Shown here piece by piece: positions 1,365 through 6,521 of a DNA stretch of 64,000 bases; within the stretch, counting starts at the first letter, position 1, and every line of letters begins with the position of its first letter. The notes below the pieces were generated by a model that did not search any database, was not told the origin of the DNA, and worked only from the letters and a program-made list of their open reading frames with translations. The translations under genes were made by a program, and so were the position numbers. The stretch spans positions 9,023-73,022 of the forward strand of contig JAUSGO010000022.1 of the NCBI GenBank assembly GCA_030649025.1. The letters run 5' to 3'. The DNA is from a bacterium. Its GTDB lineage: Bacteria > Patescibacteriota > Minisyncoccia > JAUYLV01.

Positions 1365-3155
1365 ATGGCTCCCACTCCCCACATTTTATATGCACATCGC
1401 GAAGACGAGATCACCTCATTACTCGACGCTATCGACGCGCAGGATGCCCCGGAAGTGCTTCTTGTAGTTCCTCGGGAGGCGTTGTTGTTCCGCGATCTTC
1501 TGAATCTCAAACTTCTCAAACGCGAATGCGAAAAGCTCAATAAAAAACTCACGATTTCCACCCAGGACCCCTCTGGCGCGGGTCTTGCAAAAAAAGCTGG
1601 TATCGCTGTTGAGGTTATCTCCGAAGGAGAAAAATTCTTTGAAGAATGGCCCACCCAGAGAGGAAGCGGAAAAGGGGGGTCTCTGGTTTCACAGCCTTCA
1701 GAAGTTCCACAAATTGTCAAAGGCCAGCAGATACCCATATCAGTTAACTCCTCACCTTCTATGACTACCAAACCTTCTCCGGACCAGTTTAATTCCTATG
1801 TGCAAAAACCCAGCCTCGACTTGTCTCGGCGAGGCGGGCGAGGCCGGGCGATGGACGTCATGCCGTCGACAAGAGCTACTGATGCTGCGCCGCGAAGATC
1901 TGTCCAAATGCCATCTGCTCCTTTGGCACACGGTGCTTCCGAAGAAAAACCTATAAAGGAAGAGATTTATCAAGAAGAATCTTCCGGGCGTACGCCGCGG
2001 CGCATTGGAAAAAAATTCTTTATTTGGACCTTAAGCGTTCTTTTGGTGCTTGGGATTTTAGGAGCGGGGATCAGATATATAAAGCCTTCGGCTACCGTTA
2101 CCATCTATCCCAAGGAGGATGCCGTAGAATTTGAAATGGACCTTTCGGGCCGCACAGAAATTTCTTCAGTCGACATCGCAAAAGCTGTTTTGCCTCTTGA
2201 ACGATTTCTGGTTGAGGAGACGACCGCAAAAGAATTTCCTTCAAGCGGCGATCGCGAGGTGGTAAGTAAGGCTCATGGCAAACTTACCGTATACAACGCA
2301 TTCAGTTCCTCTCCGCAGCCTATTGTCGCCACGACCCGGTTTCTTTCAGAATCGGGAAAGCTCTTCCGCACGCCCAAAGCCGTTGTTATTCCCGGTGCAA
2401 AGGTAGAGGGCGGAAAATTGACGCCGGGGTCCATAGAGATCGAGGTTGTGGCGGACCAGGCAGGAGCCGAGTACAACATTGCTCCTTCTCGGTTTTCCAT
2501 TCCCGGATTTAGCGGGACGCCCAAGGATGGAAAATTTTATGGAGAATCCCATGAGTCTCTGACGGGAGGGTTCAAGGGTTCCGGGCGCGTGGTCGAGAAA
2601 AAGGATATTGAAGCGGCGCGCTCAAGCCTTATCTCCGGAGAATCAGATCGTATGAAAGAGGTATTGCGCAAGAAATTCCCTCCGGATCTTGTCTATAGCG
2701 AAGGCGCGCTCCTTGTTGCAAGCACTGAAGTAAGCGTCTCTCCAAAGGAAGGAGAGCCGGGTGAGAAATTTACGCTCACGGTTCATACAATCGCTCAAGC
2801 ATATCTTTTTAGAGAGCAGGATGTGTTGGCGATCGTTGAGCCGAATATTACCGAAAACCTTGGCGGAAAGTACCGCACCCTGCCCGATACCCGCAAAATT
2901 TCCTATACGGTTCGGCAGCTTGATGCCGCTCTTGGCCGTCTTGCGCTTACCGCACTGATAAGCGTGCGAAGACAGGCAGTCATCGATGAGGGCGATCTTC
3001 GTTTGCGGCTTATAAATTCCGACATTGATCAGGCAAAAGCCTTTTTTGCCGAGCAGAATCATATTGACCGGGTTAATCTCTCGCTCTGGCCTTTCTGGTC
3101 ACGACAGCTTCCGGCAGATTCAAGCCGTATCAAGGTTATTACGGGGAAGAAATAG
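1365..3155 (+). CDS. Hypothetical membrane-anchored protein (N-terminal cytoplasmic domain, Pro/Ser linker, one TM, large C-terminal domain)
   Basis: 596-aa ORF preceded by a family-2 intergenic element. There is a TM helix (FFIWTLSVLLVLGILGAGI) near aa 225. No family-defining motif was recognised. It sits where ftsZ would usually follow ftsA, but it lacks the tubulin GGGTGSG motif. Confidence 0.45.
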   Translation: MAPTPHILYAHREDEITSLLDAIDAQDAPEVLLVVPREALLFRDLLNLKLLKRECEKLNKKLTISTQDPSGAGLAKKAGIAVEVISEGEKFFEEWPTQRGSGKGGSLVSQPSEVPQIVKGQQIPISVNSSPSMTTKPSPDQFNSYVQKPSLDLSRRGGRGRAMDVMPSTRATDAAPRRSVQMPSAPLAHGASEEKPIKEEIYQEESSGRTPRRIGKKFFIWTLSVLLVLGILGAGIRYIKPSATVTIYPKEDAVEFEMDLSGRTEISSVDIAKAVLPLERFLVEETTAKEFPSSGDREVVSKAHGKLTVYNAFSSSPQPIVATTRFLSESGKLFRTPKAVVIPGAKVEGGKLTPGSIEIEVVADQAGAEYNIAPSRFSIPGFSGTPKDGKFYGESHESLTGGFKGSGRVVEKKDIEAARSSLISGESDRMKEVLRKKFPPDLVYSEGALLVASTEVSVSPKEGEPGEKFTLTVHTIAQAYLFREQDVLAIVEPNITENLGGKYRTLPDTRKISYTVRQLDAALGRLALTALISVRRQAVIDEGDLRLRLINSDIDQAKAFFAEQNHIDRVNLSLWPFWSRQLPADSSRIKVITGKK

Positions 3156-3185
3156 TATAAGGTCTCATCCCAGTGAATTTAAAAA

Positions 3186-3215
3186 AGGACCCTTTTTGGG
3201 GTCCTTTCGGTTTTT
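3186..3215. terminator. Bidirectional intrinsic terminator between the convergent 1365..3155(+) and 3236..3526(-) genes
   Basis: aaaaa-AGGACCC-tttttg-GGGTCCT-ttcggttttt: a perfect 7-bp GC-rich stem with a 6-nt loop, flanked by an A-run and a T-run. Confidence 0.7.
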
Positions 3216-3235: not shown

Positions 3236-3526
3236 TTATCTTCCGCCGTTTTCAAACTTCGGCGTAAGCACGACGAGGTCTCCCGCCTGAAGCACGGTGT
3301 CGCCATTGGATGCGCGTTCGTTCACCGTAGCGCTTCCGTCCGCCTTTTTGGCGCCGCCCACGGTCTTGAGCGCGTCTTCAACGGTCATTCCCGGGGTAAA
3401 GGGGAGGGCATGTGATTTGTCGCCGATAGTGACCGTTACCGCATTCGAATGCGGAGGAGCGACGGCAGTGGCGAGGGGGATTATGGGGGTTGCAGTTTTC
3501 GGTTCTTCCAATAGTGCCGATCTCAT
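3236..3526 (-). CDS. ThiS/MoaD-family beta-grasp ubiquitin-like protein (Ubl), C-terminal ...FENGG-R
   Basis: The ~65-aa core VTVTIGDK...MTVEDALKTVG...TVLQAGDLVVLTPKFENGG has the ThiS/MoaD pattern (GD-x-V-x-L-x-P-x-x-GG). The diglycine is followed by one extra Arg. There is a 30-aa Pro/Ala-rich N-terminal extension. It is the last gene of a 4-gene operon. Confidence 0.6.
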   Translation of the reverse strand: MRSALLEEPKTATPIIPLATAVAPPHSNAVTVTIGDKSHALPFTPGMTVEDALKTVGGAKKADGSATVNERASNGDTVLQAGDLVVLTPKFENGGR

Positions 3527-3548: not shown

Positions 3549-4232
3549 TTAGGATTTTTGACGCTCTTCCTGGCGGATGAGCGTCAAATTCTTGAGGTTG
3601 AAAACCAGACGTTGCCAGTAAGGCTCTTGCATGAGCCAATGCGTAAGTTGCGAGCCGATGAGCGAGGCGATTGCCATGTTCACCGGCAGGAATGCGTCGC
3701 AAGCAAGGTCCGGGTCGATGTCTTGCGCCTCGTGAAGATGTTTTTCGTAGAACTCAACATCCTCGAGGCAGGAGGGACGGACAGTATGTATTTCCATCCA
3801 TTGGCCTTTTGTACCCACGCCGGTTCGTGCGTCGAGATAAACTGGAATTTTGCTGTTCCAGGCTACCTTGCTCCAGATGGCTTTGCGGGATTCCATGGAA
3901 TCGACGCCCGAGATGACGATGCCGCTAAGTGTCGGGAGCGATTCGTTTGGAAATGAGCAGGCGTGTTTCTTTATAGCAATTCCGGTCAAGCATAGCACGC
4001 GTTCATGCGCCGTGTCAACCTTCGGTCTGCCCGCGTCCGTCGGTCCCCACAGGAGATGGTTTGGCACGTTATGGTCCTCTATGGCATCCGAATCGATGAG
4101 CGTGATATTCTCAAACCCGATCTTGGCAAGCATCAATGTTGTCGGACTTCCGATGCCTCCTGCGCCGATGACGGTTACGGGAAATACGATGGCGTCTATA
4201 GGCAGGATGCGCTCTTGTCTGAAGTGGTTCAT
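3549..4232 (-). CDS. ThiF/MoeB/HesA-family E1-like adenylyltransferase (minimal E1)
   Basis: Rossmann motif VIGAGGIGS. LIDSDAIEDHNVPNHLL matches the E1 D-x-D-x-(V/I)-E-x-SN-L-x-RQ region. IPVYLDARTGVGTKGQ matches the MoeB/ThiF ...PLVSGAAIRxEGQ ATP-binding segment. It overlaps the upstream JAB gene by 4 nt (ATGA coupling). Confidence 0.75.
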   Translation of the reverse strand: MNHFRQERILPIDAIVFPVTVIGAGGIGSPTTLMLAKIGFENITLIDSDAIEDHNVPNHLLWGPTDAGRPKVDTAHERVLCLTGIAIKKHACSFPNESLPTLSGIVISGVDSMESRKAIWSKVAWNSKIPVYLDARTGVGTKGQWMEIHTVRPSCLEDVEFYEKHLHEAQDIDPDLACDAFLPVNMAIASLIGSQLTHWLMQEPYWQRLVFNLKNLTLIRQEERQKS

Positions 4233-4948
4233 GTCTTTTCCTCCGTTCTTTCGCCAAGAATCTGTTCGACCGGTAAGATGACTGGGTCTCCCTCCGGCAT
4301 TCGGTGAGTGTTTTTACCCAGAATGCTTTTTGGAGAAGGAATGTGAAGGCCGGCTACGCGCCATCCCTCCCGCACATGTTGATTGATGTCGTCTCGGCAC
4401 TGTTCGGTCAGGGTTTCATCTGCTACGTTCATCCGGACAAAAAGCGGCAGAGCTAGGGCAATGCGCAGGGGACGGTACACGTCGAGTCGGCATCGGTAGT
4501 CGCCTTGCTTGTTAAGTACAAGGCTTACCATCCAGTCGTAGTATCCTTCGTAGTCGGCAATCGTTCCGAGGTCCGTATGCGAGAAATATGCCGGCATGGA
4601 AACGTGCGAATGCCATTGAAGGCGTATGTGCGAAGGGTCCTTGCCCTCGCGTATCATGCGGCTCACCAGGCAGTTGTACGCCATAGAGTCTGTTTCGGCG
4701 TGTCCTCCGGAGACGCGCTGGTCAAGGATGAAAGGGTTTGTGATATAGAGGGTGCTTCCTTCAACTTCCACGATGCCAAACCCGTTTATCTCGAGCGGCA
4801 TAAGATCTACGTAGCACTTGATCTTTTGCAGCGCTTCGAGTGTGATGACTGCCCGGGGGAAACCCGTAAGTATCAGGTCTTCTCCCGAAGGAACCGGTGC
4901 TTCAACAAGCGCAGCTCGCGTTACCCTTTCGCCGGATTCAATTTCCAT
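4229..4948 (-). CDS. JAB/MPN (JAMM) metalloprotease
   Basis: Perfect JAMM motif H113-S-H115-VSMPAYF-S123-HT-D126 (HxHx7Sx2D). It overlaps the E1 gene by 4 nt and the upstream gene by 28 nt. Confidence 0.75.
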   Translation of the reverse strand: MEIESGERVTRAALVEAPVPSGEDLILTGFPRAVITLEALQKIKCYVDLMPLEINGFGIVEVEGSTLYITNPFILDQRVSGGHAETDSMAYNCLVSRMIREGKDPSHIRLQWHSHVSMPAYFSHTDLGTIADYEGYYDWMVSLVLNKQGDYRCRLDVYRPLRIALALPLFVRMNVADETLTEQCRDDINQHVREGWRVAGLHIPSPKSILGKNTHRMPEGDPVILPVEQILGERTEEKT

Positions 4949-6438
4949 GGAACCTCCTTAAAATCACGTAATTTATTTTTATCATTTTTGTTGAGGTGCG
5001 TGATGCTCTTGAGTATGTGCACCACCGCCGAGGGGATATCGCGCTCGGCAAGAAGATTATTGATATCGCCCGTGAGATTGCCGAAGCAGAAACCGCCGTC
5101 ACTTCCATAAGGGTAATCTACTTCTCCATCTCCTTTTGCCAGATTGCGGATGTAAATGCCAAACCCCTCGCCAACGTTCCGGATAAAGTCGATGCGGAAG
5201 TTCCCTATCTCAAAGAGGCGTGAGTCGTACATGATGTAGAGCGTATCGGTAAAAACCGATATGCATTCGCCTTCCACGTTTATTGCCATAACATCAGGAA
5301 AATCCTCCAGGAGCCGGAATGCTTCTTCGAAGCGAGAAAGTTTCTCTGGGTCGGGTTTCGGAGGAAGCTTCTCCAGCTCCTCCTGGTCGCGTTGCGCAAC
5401 TGCTTCGTTACGTTGCGCCCCCGCTAGCTTTGTGCCAAGCGACTGAAGGTCGCCTCTGACGCTGCGTATATTCTCCTCAAGGCTCACAGTCGTTCTCCGG
5501 GCCTCCTGGACGCGGTTTGCCGCAAGCATTTTCTGCAGGTCAATATCATACCATCCCAGAATTCTTATCCACTGCTCCCGTATCGCATCGCGCCTTGCGC
5601 GAAGTTGTGAAACGCGCGCGTCGGATGAAATTATTTTTTCACGCCTCTTTGTGTCGGTGCGCGCAAGGGACGATGTTTCCAGGATCGTCTCGGGTTTTTT
5701 TGAGTTTGCAAGCCATCTCGGGCGAGGCAAGTCCTGAAGAGGCGGCACTGGTTCGACTTCCGGGATAGAGAGAATTCTGCCATTAGCGAGTACATGCCGG
5801 AATGTGCGCCTGAAATTCACGAACCATCCTTCTACGTGCCCCCATGTCCACCCCGCGCCGATTATGACAGCGAACACGATTATGGCTCCTATGGTGCCGG
5901 GGAAAAGCACTAATCCCCATGCGTACGGCCAAGGTTTCTTAAGAACATCAGGTTCGGGGCCATCATCGAAAATATACGCCAGGACCACAATAAGCGAAAA
6001 TAGCGGATAGAAAATCCACAAAAGCCACCAGTCGACATTTTTCCAGTATGAGTCCCAAGACGGTTCGGCACGAAACGCTTTTTCATACGGCAGGCGTCCG
6101 CGCATGACAGCGATAACGGTCTGGGTCTCTTCGCGGACTATTTTGCCGTATGCGGTAGTTTCATGCACAAGAGATTTGTCCAGAATGAGGGCAAGCTCAT
6201 TTGCGGAAATCTCTTGAGGAAGCGTTCGAAGGATAGCCGCCACGTTGTATGCATCACTATTCTTTGTTTGCGCTGTCGGCGCTACCAGTTCCTTATAGAA
6301 ATCGTTACGATCTCTGATTGAGGATGCATCTACAAAAAATTTAAAGGCGTAAATTCCAAAGCAGAGCACTGCCACAATAAGAGCGATGAGGCCGCTACGG
6401 ATAAGTTTCTCGAGAAAAGCCCTATGCTCGTTTTCCAT
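4921..6438 (-). CDS. Membrane protein (3 predicted TM helices) with a central coiled coil and a C-terminal UBC/E2-like domain (candidate E2)
   Basis: TM helices at aa ~15-35, ~135-160 and ~170-195. A coiled-coil / charged region spans aa ~250-345. The C-terminal ~110 aa has alpha1, then a 4-strand meander (VMAINVEGECISVF / TLYIMYDS / RLFEIGNFRIDFI / GFGIYIRNL), then YPYGSDGGFCFGNL in the position of the E2 HPN...G-x-I-C-L active-site loop, then a helix. This is UBC-fold topology with a candidate catalytic Cys near aa 451. It is the first gene of the operon, with AGGAG 8 nt upstream of the ATG. Confidence 0.5.
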   Translation of the reverse strand: MENEHRAFLEKLIRSGLIALIVAVLCFGIYAFKFFVDASSIRDRNDFYKELVAPTAQTKNSDAYNVAAILRTLPQEISANELALILDKSLVHETTAYGKIVREETQTVIAVMRGRLPYEKAFRAEPSWDSYWKNVDWWLLWIFYPLFSLIVVLAYIFDDGPEPDVLKKPWPYAWGLVLFPGTIGAIIVFAVIIGAGWTWGHVEGWFVNFRRTFRHVLANGRILSIPEVEPVPPLQDLPRPRWLANSKKPETILETSSLARTDTKRREKIISSDARVSQLRARRDAIREQWIRILGWYDIDLQKMLAANRVQEARRTTVSLEENIRSVRGDLQSLGTKLAGAQRNEAVAQRDQEELEKLPPKPDPEKLSRFEEAFRLLEDFPDVMAINVEGECISVFTDTLYIMYDSRLFEIGNFRIDFIRNVGEGFGIYIRNLAKGDGEVDYPYGSDGGFCFGNLTGDINNLLAERDIPSAVVHILKSITHLNKNDKNKLRDFKEVPWKLNPAKG

Positions 6439-6492: not shown

Positions 6493-6521
6493 ATCATAAC
6501 AAAACATAAGTTGAACGTCAA
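6493..6521 (-). promoter_or_regulatory. Sigma70-like promoter of the Ubl/E1/JAB/E2-like operon
   Basis: On the minus strand: TTGACG, a 17-nt spacer, TATGAT, then AGGAG, then the ATG at 6438. Confidence 0.55.

Follow-up and report, generated by a model that had tools for sequence, protein, structure and literature searches.

The window, by which we mean the whole 64,000-nucleotide stretch of patescibacterial DNA analysed here, carries four adjacent minus-strand genes that encode an E2-like protein, a JAB/JAMM metallopeptidase, a single-domain E1 and a ubiquitin-like protein (Ubl), in that order of reading (Table 1). The genes are tightly packed, with a 28-nt overlap between the E2-like and JAB genes, a 4-nt overlap between JAB and E1, and a 22-nt gap between E1 and Ubl. 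Translation of the first gene would begin at an ATG that has AGGAG 7–11 nt upstream, and its 505-aa product (hereafter the query) is an exact match to a protein predicted from a metagenome-assembled genome, MDO8558089.1. Because there are 181 homologous clusters and the synteny is conserved, we conclude from these comparisons that the ORF is a real gene and not a chance ORF. At the other end of the cassette, a palindromic hairpin could possibly serve as a bidirectional terminator.

Table 1. Coordinates of the cassette and its features in the window
Feature	Position	Strand	Basis or remark
Candidate promoter upstream of the cassette	6493..6521	-	sigma-70-like TTGACG-17-TATGAT, TG extended; consensus match, nothing more
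E2-like gene, 505-aa predicted membrane-anchored protein	4921..6438	-	ORF list; NCBI MDO8558089.1 "hypothetical protein"
TM1 (aa 15-36)	6331..6396	-	Kyte-Doolittle peak 2.48; within predicted helix 2-52
Small helical domain between TM1 and TM2 (aa 37-134)	6037..6330	-	helices 61-72, 79-88, 96-112, 118-121; pLDDT 78-96
TM2 (aa 135-157), Trp/aromatic-rich	5968..6036	-	Kyte-Doolittle peak 2.38; within predicted helix 128-159
Acidic loop (aa 158-172), start of WPWxKxWxYP motif	5923..5967	-	2 K+R vs 4 D+E
TM3 (aa 173-197)	5848..5922	-	Kyte-Doolittle peak 2.55; within predicted helix 179-219
Disordered Pro-rich tether (aa 220-250, 31 residues)	5689..5781	-	pLDDT <50, about 42; sequence GRILSIPEVEPVPPLQDLPRPRWLANSKKPE
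Heptad-rich helical stalk (aa 251-357)	5368..5688	-	predicted helices 251-281, 283-327, 334-357
UBC/E2-like predicted catalytic domain (aa 364-496)	4951..5349	-	AlphaFold model, pLDDT 91
YPY (aa 442-444), counterpart of family HP[HY]	5107..5115	-	aligned on HPN of classical E2s
Cys451 codon, predicted catalytic cysteine	5086..5088	-	near-invariant; aligned on E2 catalytic Cys
JAB/JAMM metallopeptidase gene, 239 aa	4229..4948	-	Pfam Prok-JAB E 8.6e-4, under gathering cut-off
JAMM motif HSHVSMPAYFSHTD of JAB	4571-4612	-	sequence motif
Single-domain E1 gene, ThiF/MoeB-type adenylyltransferase, 227 aa	3549..4232	-	Pfam ThiF E 7.7e-24
Ubl gene, 96 aa, SAMP2/ThiS-type beta-grasp, ends ...FENG-GR	3236..3526	-	profile of 13 cassette Ubls
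Palindromic GC-rich hairpin between the Ubl gene and the converging plus-strand gene ending at 3155	3184..3207	.	pattern match

Hydrophobic segments were called by the Kyte-Doolittle method in 19-residue windows, with maxima at aa 18–36, 139–157 and 175–193 of the query, and the full-length AlphaFold model covers all three with helices 2–52, 128–159 and 179–219, bearing out the original prediction of three transmembrane (TM) helices. All of these are N-terminal (aa 15–197), nothing hydrophobic lying downstream of the UBC domain; TM1 is matched in position in 33 TM-type homologs, and hydrophobic helices occur at all three positions in 33–34 representatives. TM2 and its flanks (VDWWLLWIFYPLF; KKPWPYAWG) are Trp/aromatic-rich, as had been predicted, and the WPWxKxWxYP motif runs from the aa 158–172 loop to Pro180 within TM3, with P169, W170 and W174 near-invariant and P180 invariant in 40 TM-type homologs. 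Across 33 homologs, the 25 residues past TM3 contain 0.22 K+R per residue, compared with about 0.11 in the other loops, an enrichment that supports a cytoplasmic location for the C-terminal side; a C-in orientation of the C-terminal domain is probable, and the aa 158–172 loop is probably extracytoplasmic. If the topology is N-out/C-in, the aa 37–134 helical domain, for which we sought structural relatives and found none, would be cytoplasmic.

Between the membrane module and the C-terminal domain, the model places a disordered tether and a stalk. The stalk has a mean heptad score of 0.61, higher than all 300 composition-preserving shuffles (0.40 ± 0.05), so that the charged, heptad-rich segment of roughly 100 aa foreseen from the sequence is recovered at about 105 aa, and its RVSQLRARRD...QEELEKL portion (aa 275–357) falls within the predicted stalk helices. 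Among TM-type homologs, the stalk motif LSxLGxxIxxxQRxLA is conserved, with L331, Q342 and A346 near-invariant. The accompanying idea that the stalk would set the Cys at one constant distance from the membrane was not supported, because the tether is flexible and the stalk is broken into three helices with no single rod; on the strength of these features of the AlphaFold model we rejected a rigid coiled-coil spacer.

The C-terminal domain is a compact alpha/beta unit in which one helix is followed by six strands, a loop and three helices. This arrangement of a helix, an antiparallel beta-meander, a long loop and C-terminal helices is that of a UBC-like fold, in agreement with the proposed resemblance to an E2; START/Bet v1 and PilZ folds were ruled out, being absent from the hit lists. 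Cys451, which directly precedes helix 453–464, is present in 147 of 149 representatives and invariant in further family alignments, and it aligns with the catalytic Cys of both UbcH7 (Cys86, by HMMER) and UBE2D2 (Cys85, by hhalign), in line with the proposal of a Cys at the E2 position that homologs conserve. G412 is also invariant, and conservation reaches 90% or more at T397, N432, P443 and G453. Cys392 was ruled out as the active Cys, as it is not conserved. The family signature, HP[HY]-x(6,7)-C-x-G, is in register with the HPN...Cys of classical E2s and places the motif about 8–9 residues ahead of the Cys: His occupies position 442 in 129 of 148 members and Pro position 443 in 143 of 148, and position 444 is His in 92 and Tyr in 47. 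The query has YPY at these positions, and the catalytic Asn of HPN is absent throughout the family.

We compared the domain with E2 models by several routes. A family profile searched against PDB sequences matched UBE2L3 at E about 0.6, its HPH falling on HPN and its invariant Cys on Cys86, and hhalign against four human E2s gave the same register (E 6.2e-5, probability 65%). Pfam UQ_con (PF00179) was matched by one of 104 family members (E 7.1e-5) and not by the query even at E <= 1; Prok-E2_A to Prok-E2_E gave no match for the query at E <= 1 and none for the 104 members at E <= 0.01, and neither NCBIfam nor PADLOC matched the 505-aa protein or any of 32 domain sequences. A phmmer search of the query against PDB sequences returned enterotoxin B as its sole match (E 0.2), which we rejected as spurious. 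In a word-indexed protein database we retrieved only the query itself, and nothing with the domain alignment, and hence no annotated relatives there. The domain nevertheless defines a predicted E2-like family that curated models miss, comprising 181 representative clusters that match it at E <= 1e-3, all of them unnamed or "hypothetical"; one 3252-aa protein (P0037) was dropped as a false match. Roughly one family member in three has the three-TM module, and the majority of the family is soluble.

The partner proteins look competent for Ubl chemistry, judging from their conserved residues. Among PDB sequences, the JAB protein is matched best by 6fju, an Rpn11-like protein of Caldiarchaeum (E 8.5e-4). 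In the E1, the ThiF domain (residues 19–212) is the sole domain, cassette E1s ranging from 215 to 291 aa, and its PDB sequence matches are UBA3, ThiF, MccB, UBA5 and MoeB. Conserved across 22 cassette E1s are G23/G25/G28, D47, D49, N55, K71, D111, R116 and R136, and Cys178 (codon 3699–3701) is found in 22 of 22; an E2-binding ubiquitin-fold domain is absent. PADLOC recognises the E1 alone among the cassette proteins, through weak E1-E2 matches over the nucleotide-binding part. For the Ubl, a profile of 13 cassette members matches PF1061 (5.5e-10), SAMP2 (9.1e-10), MoaD, ThiS and TtuB. Gly94 (codon 3245–3247) is the only invariant Ubl column and is the final residue in 12 homologs, the query having two residues more. 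None of the four cassette proteins matches DUF6527. The conserved linkage of the E2-like gene to an E1 with an invariant Cys and to a Gly-ending Ubl gives indirect support to a putative thioester between Cys451 and Ubl delivered by the E1.

To locate the cassette elsewhere, we used a hand-built degenerate DNA pattern, and 22 of its 46 genome matches were chance. The pattern covers 68 of 149 representatives, and the taxonomic picture is therefore a sample. The full order E2-like > JAB > E1 > Ubl occurs in 19 loci from several phyla, confirming the Ubl-system operon context; four further loci are truncated after E1, and three that have no JAB keep E2-like > E1 > Ubl. At every locus examined the E2-like gene comes first, and in most JAB is second. 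The taxa are patchily distributed and include Patescibacteria, NC10, Omnitrophica, one archaeon and jumbo-phage-like contigs. On phage-like contigs of 63–193 kb, family members lie beside phage replication genes; a single array can comprise as many as five E2-like ORFs, there being several E2-like paralogs to one E1. Locus L031 carries a tandem duplication. In the window and other Patescibacteria loci, the neighbours are core genes such as infA, those for ribosomal proteins, MurA and MreB; Mur ligases, DivIC and FtsEX; or Pth, Mfd and HisRS, and we saw neither an integrase nor restriction or other defence genes around the cassette. In the literature searched, which comprised papers available without subscription, we found no earlier description of the cassette or of a membrane-anchored bacterial E2. 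As far as could be found, the cassette is undescribed so far, and the membrane location, as anticipated, is unusual.

We think it probable that the query serves as the E2 in a four-gene cassette for Ubl conjugation, which most likely encodes an E1-E2 cascade sited at the cytoplasmic face of the membrane. The fold of the C-terminal domain, the catalytic-type residues conserved in each of the four proteins, the order of the genes, the TM segments and a probable C-in orientation are read directly from the locus, its homologs and the models; from them we infer each chemical step, the homodimeric state of E1 and the independence from an E3. The JAMM peptidase would trim GR from the 96-aa Ubl to expose Gly94, which the ThiF-type E1, presumably a homodimer, would adenylate before holding the Ubl as a thioester on Cys178. 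The Ubl would then be handed on to Cys451 of the UBC-like domain, from which the E2-like protein would pass it to targets, no dedicated E3 being needed; its N-terminal part would give localisation and probably target choice as well. Because this N-terminal part consists of a conserved three-TM module joined through the flexible Pro-rich tether to the stalk, the catalytic domain would be cytoplasmic and lie near the inner membrane face. The JAMM peptidase may also undo the modification.

Several features of the locus speak against an E2: no curated model detects the domain, the query has YPY where the family has HPH, and the catalytic Asn is missing. Ubl and E1 pairs of the ThiS/MoeB/SAMP type can also function without an E2, as in sulfur transfer and sampylation, and this E1 has no ubiquitin-fold domain. 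The C-terminal domain might be a non-catalytic RWD/UEV-type module that only binds the Ubl or E1, making the protein a membrane adaptor or scaffold of an E2-independent, sampylation-like E1/Ubl/JAMM system. RWD and UEV domains, however, are missing the active-site Cys, whereas here it is retained almost without exception within a motif in register with HPN...Cys; such conservation is unexpected for pure binding, and we therefore consider this reading very improbable. The cassette could also be a sulfur relay, in which the E1 makes a Ubl thiocarboxylate and the Cys451 protein acts as a persulfide carrier or as a sulfur acceptor or donor. The Ubl profile does match MoaD, ThiS and TtuB, the E1 matches the ThiF and MoeB families, and the E1 and E2-like proteins each have a single invariant Cys. 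Yet the cassette contains no rhodanese, cysteine desulfurase, ThiG/ThiH, MoaE or TtuA-type partner, a JAMM isopeptidase is its usual second gene, and the protein bearing Cys451 is of UBC fold, for which we know of no precedent as a sulfur carrier. The several E2-like paralogs per E1 on phage-like contigs likewise suit target diversification better than cofactor synthesis, and we hold a sulfur relay to be very improbable.

The remaining alternatives concern the role of the cassette. It may be a Bil-like system of virus-host conflict that tags phage or host proteins, the membrane form acting at a site of phage entry or assembly, as opposed to a housekeeping modifier of envelope proteins; such a role could go together with the E2 mechanism. 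To date, every bacterial E1/E2 system characterised by experiment is antiphage (PMC11601596; PMC10557695), and the E2-like arrays next to phage replication genes, the patchy taxa and the duplication at L031 fit this picture. In the window and other Patescibacteria loci, by contrast, the cassette sits among core genes with no defence genes in view, and the PADLOC recognition of E1 is weak, so we regard a conflict role as a possibility that is rather doubtful. We would propose with similar reserve that the cassette is a distinct, unclassified ubiquitination-like class, built of a SAMP2/ThiS-type Ubl, a minimal E1, an HPH-type E2 with an N-terminal targeting module and usually a JAMM peptidase. 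It might then represent a living intermediate between E2-less sampylation or sulfur-carrier systems and full E1-E2 cascades. Its membrane branch might act at the inner membrane face of organisms with very small genomes, on proteins of the envelope, of division or of the membrane, or conceivably on a membrane lipid (compare Atg8-PE). The cassette is spread over bacteria of candidate phyla, over jumbo phages and over a small number of other uncultured lineages.

Bacterial E1/E2/Ubl systems (CBASS Cap2, Bil and Bub) were established only recently as genuine relatives of eukaryotic ubiquitination, and every one characterised is soluble and tied to defence against phages. The E2 family described here escapes curated models yet retains a classical-looking His-Pro...Cys signature. 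That it is paired with an E1 of the simplest possible kind and with a SAMP2-like Ubl bears on how the E2 step joined E1-only systems. In one branch the E2 is predicted to be an integral membrane protein, and bacterial Ubl conjugation may therefore be spatially organised. Its sites among core genes in reduced-genome Patescibacteria, together with the E2 arrays on jumbo-phage-like contigs, hint at roles on either side of the conflict between viruses and hosts. Because the cassette comprises four small proteins with simple predicted chemistry, the proposal is readily testable by reconstitution.

Compared with classical E2s (UQ_con; UbcH7/UBE2L3, UBE2D2, Ube2W), the cassette family shares the fold class (helix, beta-meander, loop, helices), a His-Pro-x motif that lies 8–9 residues ahead of the conserved Cys and aligns in register, and the company of an E1, a Gly-ending Ubl and a JAMM partner. 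It differs in having no significant UQ_con match, in HP[HY] (YPY in the query) where classical E2s have HPN, so that the catalytic Asn is missing, in a sheet of six strands where classical E2s have four, in the 360-residue N-terminal extension with three TM helices that the query adds, and in a partner E1 of only 227 aa in a single domain. Alike in gene content is Bil (BilABCD, class 6d of Iyer et al. 2006), which also encodes Ubl, E2, JAB and E1 as separate genes with no E3, its E2 being thought to choose targets directly (PMC11601596; PMC10557695). The E1 BilD, however, is multidomain (IAD-AAD-CYS), whereas the cassette E1 is a single adenylation domain; class 6d E2s have no His ahead of the Cys and a conserved His past it (PMC1779556), whereas the cassette family has HPH ahead of the Cys and C-x-G-N from the Cys on. 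The Bil Ubl is ISG15-like and the cassette Ubl SAMP2/ThiS-like; the alpha-helical protein that accompanies Bil is absent here, and PADLOC gives the E2 no match. Bub (class 6e) has an E2 with a catalytic Ser, the DUF6527 protease BubE and Ubl-E2 or E2-E1 fusions (PMC11601596), in contrast to the invariant Cys, separate genes and lack of DUF6527 here. In Type II CBASS (Cap2/6A-MBL), Cap2 is an E2-E1 fusion and there is no Ubl, whereas the cassette has separate genes and a Ubl.

Archaeal sampylation (SAMP2/UbaA/JAMM) and the Thermus TtuB/TtuC system resemble the cassette in Ubl and E1: SAMP2/PF1061 (~1e-9) and TtuB match the cassette Ubl, and a small MoeB/ThiF-type E1 and a JAMM deconjugase are common to all. 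These systems have no E2, whereas the cassette has, as the first gene in every locus examined, a UBC-fold protein with an invariant Cys. The Caldiarchaeum and Asgard ubiquitin operons (Ub, E1, E2, RING E3, Rpn11) share a content of Ubl, E1, E2 and Rpn11-like JAMM, the cassette E2 family retaining the His-Pro motif ahead of the Cys and the JAB being nearest the Caldiarchaeum Rpn11-like protein; unlike them, the cassette has no RING E3, its E1 is minimal and not Uba1-like, its Ubl is ThiS/SAMP-like and not ubiquitin-like, and its E2 is missed by UQ_con. Among eukaryotic E2s, Ubc6, UBE2J1 and UBE2J2 are tail-anchored by one C-terminal TM helix, whereas the cassette anchor is an N-terminal three-helix module with conserved motifs of its own, followed by a tether and a stalk, and the likeness in membrane attachment is one of analogy, not homology.

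The C-terminal part of the 505-aa protein had been proposed to be an E2-like domain with a catalytic cysteine, and both the predicted fold and the conservation of that residue stand up in the wider family. None of the curated libraries scanned with the protein recognises it; its sequence exactly matches a MAG protein named 'hypothetical protein [bacterium]', all named members of the family are likewise 'hypothetical protein', and we found no description of the family or its cassette in the accessible literature. When aa 355-505 were run exhaustively through HMMER against 1.84 billion cluster representatives, 181 clusters matched at E <= 1e-3, mostly of 350-550 aa with the domain C-terminal. 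In the family alignment G412 and C451 are invariant and T397, N432, P443, and G453 are conserved at 90% or more; the signature reads ...VFTDTIYI...YEIGxFxIxI...NL...HP[HY]-x3-G-x2-C-[FL]-G-N, and the HPH of most members is YPY in the 505-aa protein. Modelled from 32 sequences, the domain is predicted with confidence (pLDDT 91.2, pTM 0.84), and the best Foldseek matches of the model are Ube2W, UbcH7, and UBE2L6 (TM about 0.5), with no competing fold among the matches. Searching PDB sequences with the family profile led to UBE2L3 at an E value of only about 0.6, in an alignment that pairs HPH with HPN and the invariant Cys with catalytic Cys86. Comparison with four human E2s by hhalign gave the same register (E 6.2e-5, probability 65%). 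One family member independently matched Pfam UQ_con (E 7.1e-5), and none of the members scanned with Pfam matched Prok-E2_A to E. As judged from sequence and model, the domain has a divergent UBC fold and carries an active-site signature of the E2 type.

The E2-like gene belongs to a tightly packed cassette of four genes, all on the minus strand, in the order E2-like > JAB > E1 > Ubl (ubiquitin-like protein). Housekeeping genes surround the cassette: infA, rpsM and other ribosomal proteins, a PEGA protein, MurA, MreB, and a GT4 glycosyltransferase. At E <= 0.001 Pfam matches neither of the two genes at the Ubl end, 38-1243 (+; 401 aa) and 1365-3155 (+; 596 aa), and an Rfam scan of the 64-kb window at gathering thresholds returned zero RNA families, tRNA included.

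Features of the E2-like cassette and of the protein that heads it
Feature	Position	Strand	Remarks
E2-like gene	4921..6438	-	ORF, 505 aa; heads the cassette; ATG start preceded by AGGAG
Sigma-70-like site	6521-6493	-	Pattern match upstream of the E2-like gene
JAB gene	4229-4948	-	239 aa; 28-nt overlap with the E2-like gene
E1 gene	3549-4232	-	227 aa; 4-nt overlap with the JAB gene
Ubl gene	3236-3526	-	96 aa; 22-nt gap after the E1 gene
Palindromic hairpin	3184-3207		Between the cassette and the converging gene
WPWxKxWxYP motif, TM2-TM3 loop	5899-5967 (aa 158-180)		Nearly invariant in TM-type homologs
Alpha/beta domain	aa 364-496		AlphaFold full-length model

The partner proteins resemble components of Ubl pathways. 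Pfam assigns the 227-aa protein to the ThiF family of adenylyltransferases (E 7.7e-24), and its relatives among PDB sequences are UBA3, ThiF, MccB, UBA5, and MoeB. Nucleotide-binding and catalytic residues are conserved in 22 cassette E1s, including Cys178 in all 22, and motif context would place Cys178 at the site of the active Cys in MoeB, ThiF, and UBA5. The JAB protein carries the JAMM motif HSHVSMPAYFSHTD, and its nearest match is a Caldiarchaeum Rpn11-like protein; four JAB homologs from other loci (L002:4266-5024, L006:1286-2026, L007:6846-7580, and L047:3664-4389; E 1e-54 or better) fail the simple pattern HxH-x(5,12)-S-x2-D, and in these the metal site may be variant or lost. Thirteen small cassette proteins, combined in a profile, gave matches to Pyrococcus PF1061 and SAMP2 (both about 1e-9), followed by MoaD, ThiS, and TtuB; the sole invariant column of the profile is a Gly, the final residue in 12 homologs. 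The Ubl of the window runs two residues past this Gly (...FENG-GR), making maturation a plausible task for the JAMM peptidase here. The fourth gene of cassettes with soluble E2-like proteins (L002:5824-6747, L006:2802-3803 (= L026), L012:1435-2094, and L043:2870-3676) encodes 219-333 aa, matches the Ubl profile, and has no terminal Gly-Gly; these products look like Ubl fusions or precursors with an additional part.

Gene order was the same in the contexts of four representatives and in 24 true matches obtained by scanning one genome per GTDB species with a degenerate DNA pattern. The full order occurs at 19 loci, 4 further loci are cut off after E1, and 3 (L001, L020, L028) have E2-like > E1 > Ubl with no JAB. 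The Ubls of these three already terminate at the conserved Gly. One MAG labelled Gammaproteobacteria has two complete tandem cassettes (L031:2-6456), with E2-like proteins of 416 aa and 485 aa, each accompanied by JAB, E1, and Ubl. Hosts of the pattern-scan loci are mainly Patescibacteria (Paceibacterota, Parcubacteria, Saccharibacteria, Minisyncoccales, and Vogelbacteria), with others in Methylomirabilota/NC10, Omnitrophica, Chloroflexi, MAGs labelled Gammaproteobacteria, and one Thermoplasmatota archaeon, whose binned contig (L032:1175-2479) encodes a 434-aa E2-like protein, a 327-aa JAB, and the start of an E1.

Three TM segments are the layout of about a third of the representatives, and over half lack any; among the genomes sampled, the TM form is seen in Patescibacteria-type MAGs and in one 'Gammaproteobacteria' MAG. 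The three TM helices of the original prediction were recovered as Kyte-Doolittle peaks (aa 18-36, 139-157, and 175-193), each coinciding with a helix (2-52, 128-159, and 179-219) in a full-length AlphaFold model built from 40 TM-type homologs (mean pLDDT 81.2). A small helical domain (aa 61-121), well predicted, lies between TM1 and TM2. Among TM-type homologs P180 never varies and W128, P169, W170, and W174 hardly do, and the near-invariance of WPWxKxWxYP suggests that the module has a role beyond anchoring, such as partner or lipid binding. The stalk is modelled as three long helices (251-281, 283-327, and 334-357) with a conserved LSxLGxxIxxxQRxLA motif, and the heptad regularity of the helical region exceeds that of all 300 shuffles; the proposed heptad-rich character is thus borne out, and the region is a candidate coiled coil. 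A fixed distance between the catalytic Cys and the membrane, also proposed, gives way to a flexible tether: aa 220-250 are Pro-rich and disordered (pLDDT about 42). In 33 three-TM homologs, K+R density in the 25 residues past TM3 is 0.22 per residue versus about 0.11 in every other loop, so by the positive-inside rule the stalk and C-terminal domain are probably cytoplasmic; the orientation of the N-terminal parts we infer.

The analyses above show the fold, residues, synteny, and probable orientation; the reading they best support is a minimal E1-E2 cascade, for which we infer the chemistry and targets. The JAMM peptidase would mature the Ubl, which would be adenylated, form a thioester on E1 Cys178, and be handed on to Cys451 of the E2-like protein; transfer would occur without an E3, with the N-terminal part of the E2-like protein choosing or approaching targets, and the JAMM peptidase would reverse the modification. 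That part anchors the 505-aa protein in the membrane, so its catalytic domain would work near the inner membrane face, on its flexible tether. An E2-less system of the sampylation type, in which the domain is a non-catalytic RWD-like or UBC-like adaptor, is unlikely, because RWD-like domains have no active-site Cys, whereas C451 is invariant in this family. A sulfur-relay pathway in place of Ubl conjugation is a further rival, also unlikely.

Role is a separate question, and here a conflict system competes with a housekeeping modifier. Applied to IMG/VR, the same DNA pattern picked out the family on phage-like contigs of 63-193 kb (L054, L056, L057, L058, L059, and L061), three of which (L054, L056, and L058) carry full cassettes; L056 has one JAB-E1 pair amid five E2-like and three Ubl-like ORFs. 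Genes of phage-type replication and NAD salvage lie nearby, and the neighbors include DNA polymerase exonuclease, SNF2 helicase, primase, Dam methylase, NAMPT, and a PNKP-type ligase. All viral E2-like copies are soluble, and several short paralogs fail a simple HPH...C pattern search and may not have the motif. These phage-borne copies favor a conflict role, but the core-gene neighborhoods of cassettes in Patescibacteria argue against it.

Known from sequence and models, the cassette appears to belong to an established kind, the prokaryotic E1/E2/Ubl/JAB conjugation systems; its E2 family, minimal-E1 pairing, membrane anchor, and phage-borne arrays would be of specialist interest and are readily testable. 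It has Ubl, E1, and JAMM in common with sampylation, which is not known to use an E2. Caldiarchaeum-type operons differ by their RING E3 and Uba1-like E1, and tail-anchored Ubc6/UBE2J are analogous merely in membrane attachment. Gene content is identical to that of Bil (class 6d) (PMC11601596, PMC10557695), but the cassette E1 is single-domain rather than IAD-AAD-CYS (PMC11601596), the His precedes the Cys in its E2-like family and follows it in the class 6d E2 (PMC1779556), and its Ubl, unlike that of Bil, is SAMP2-like. Bub (class 6e) and Cap2 of Type II CBASS are set apart from the cassette by fusions, a catalytic Ser, and BubE (PMC11601596).
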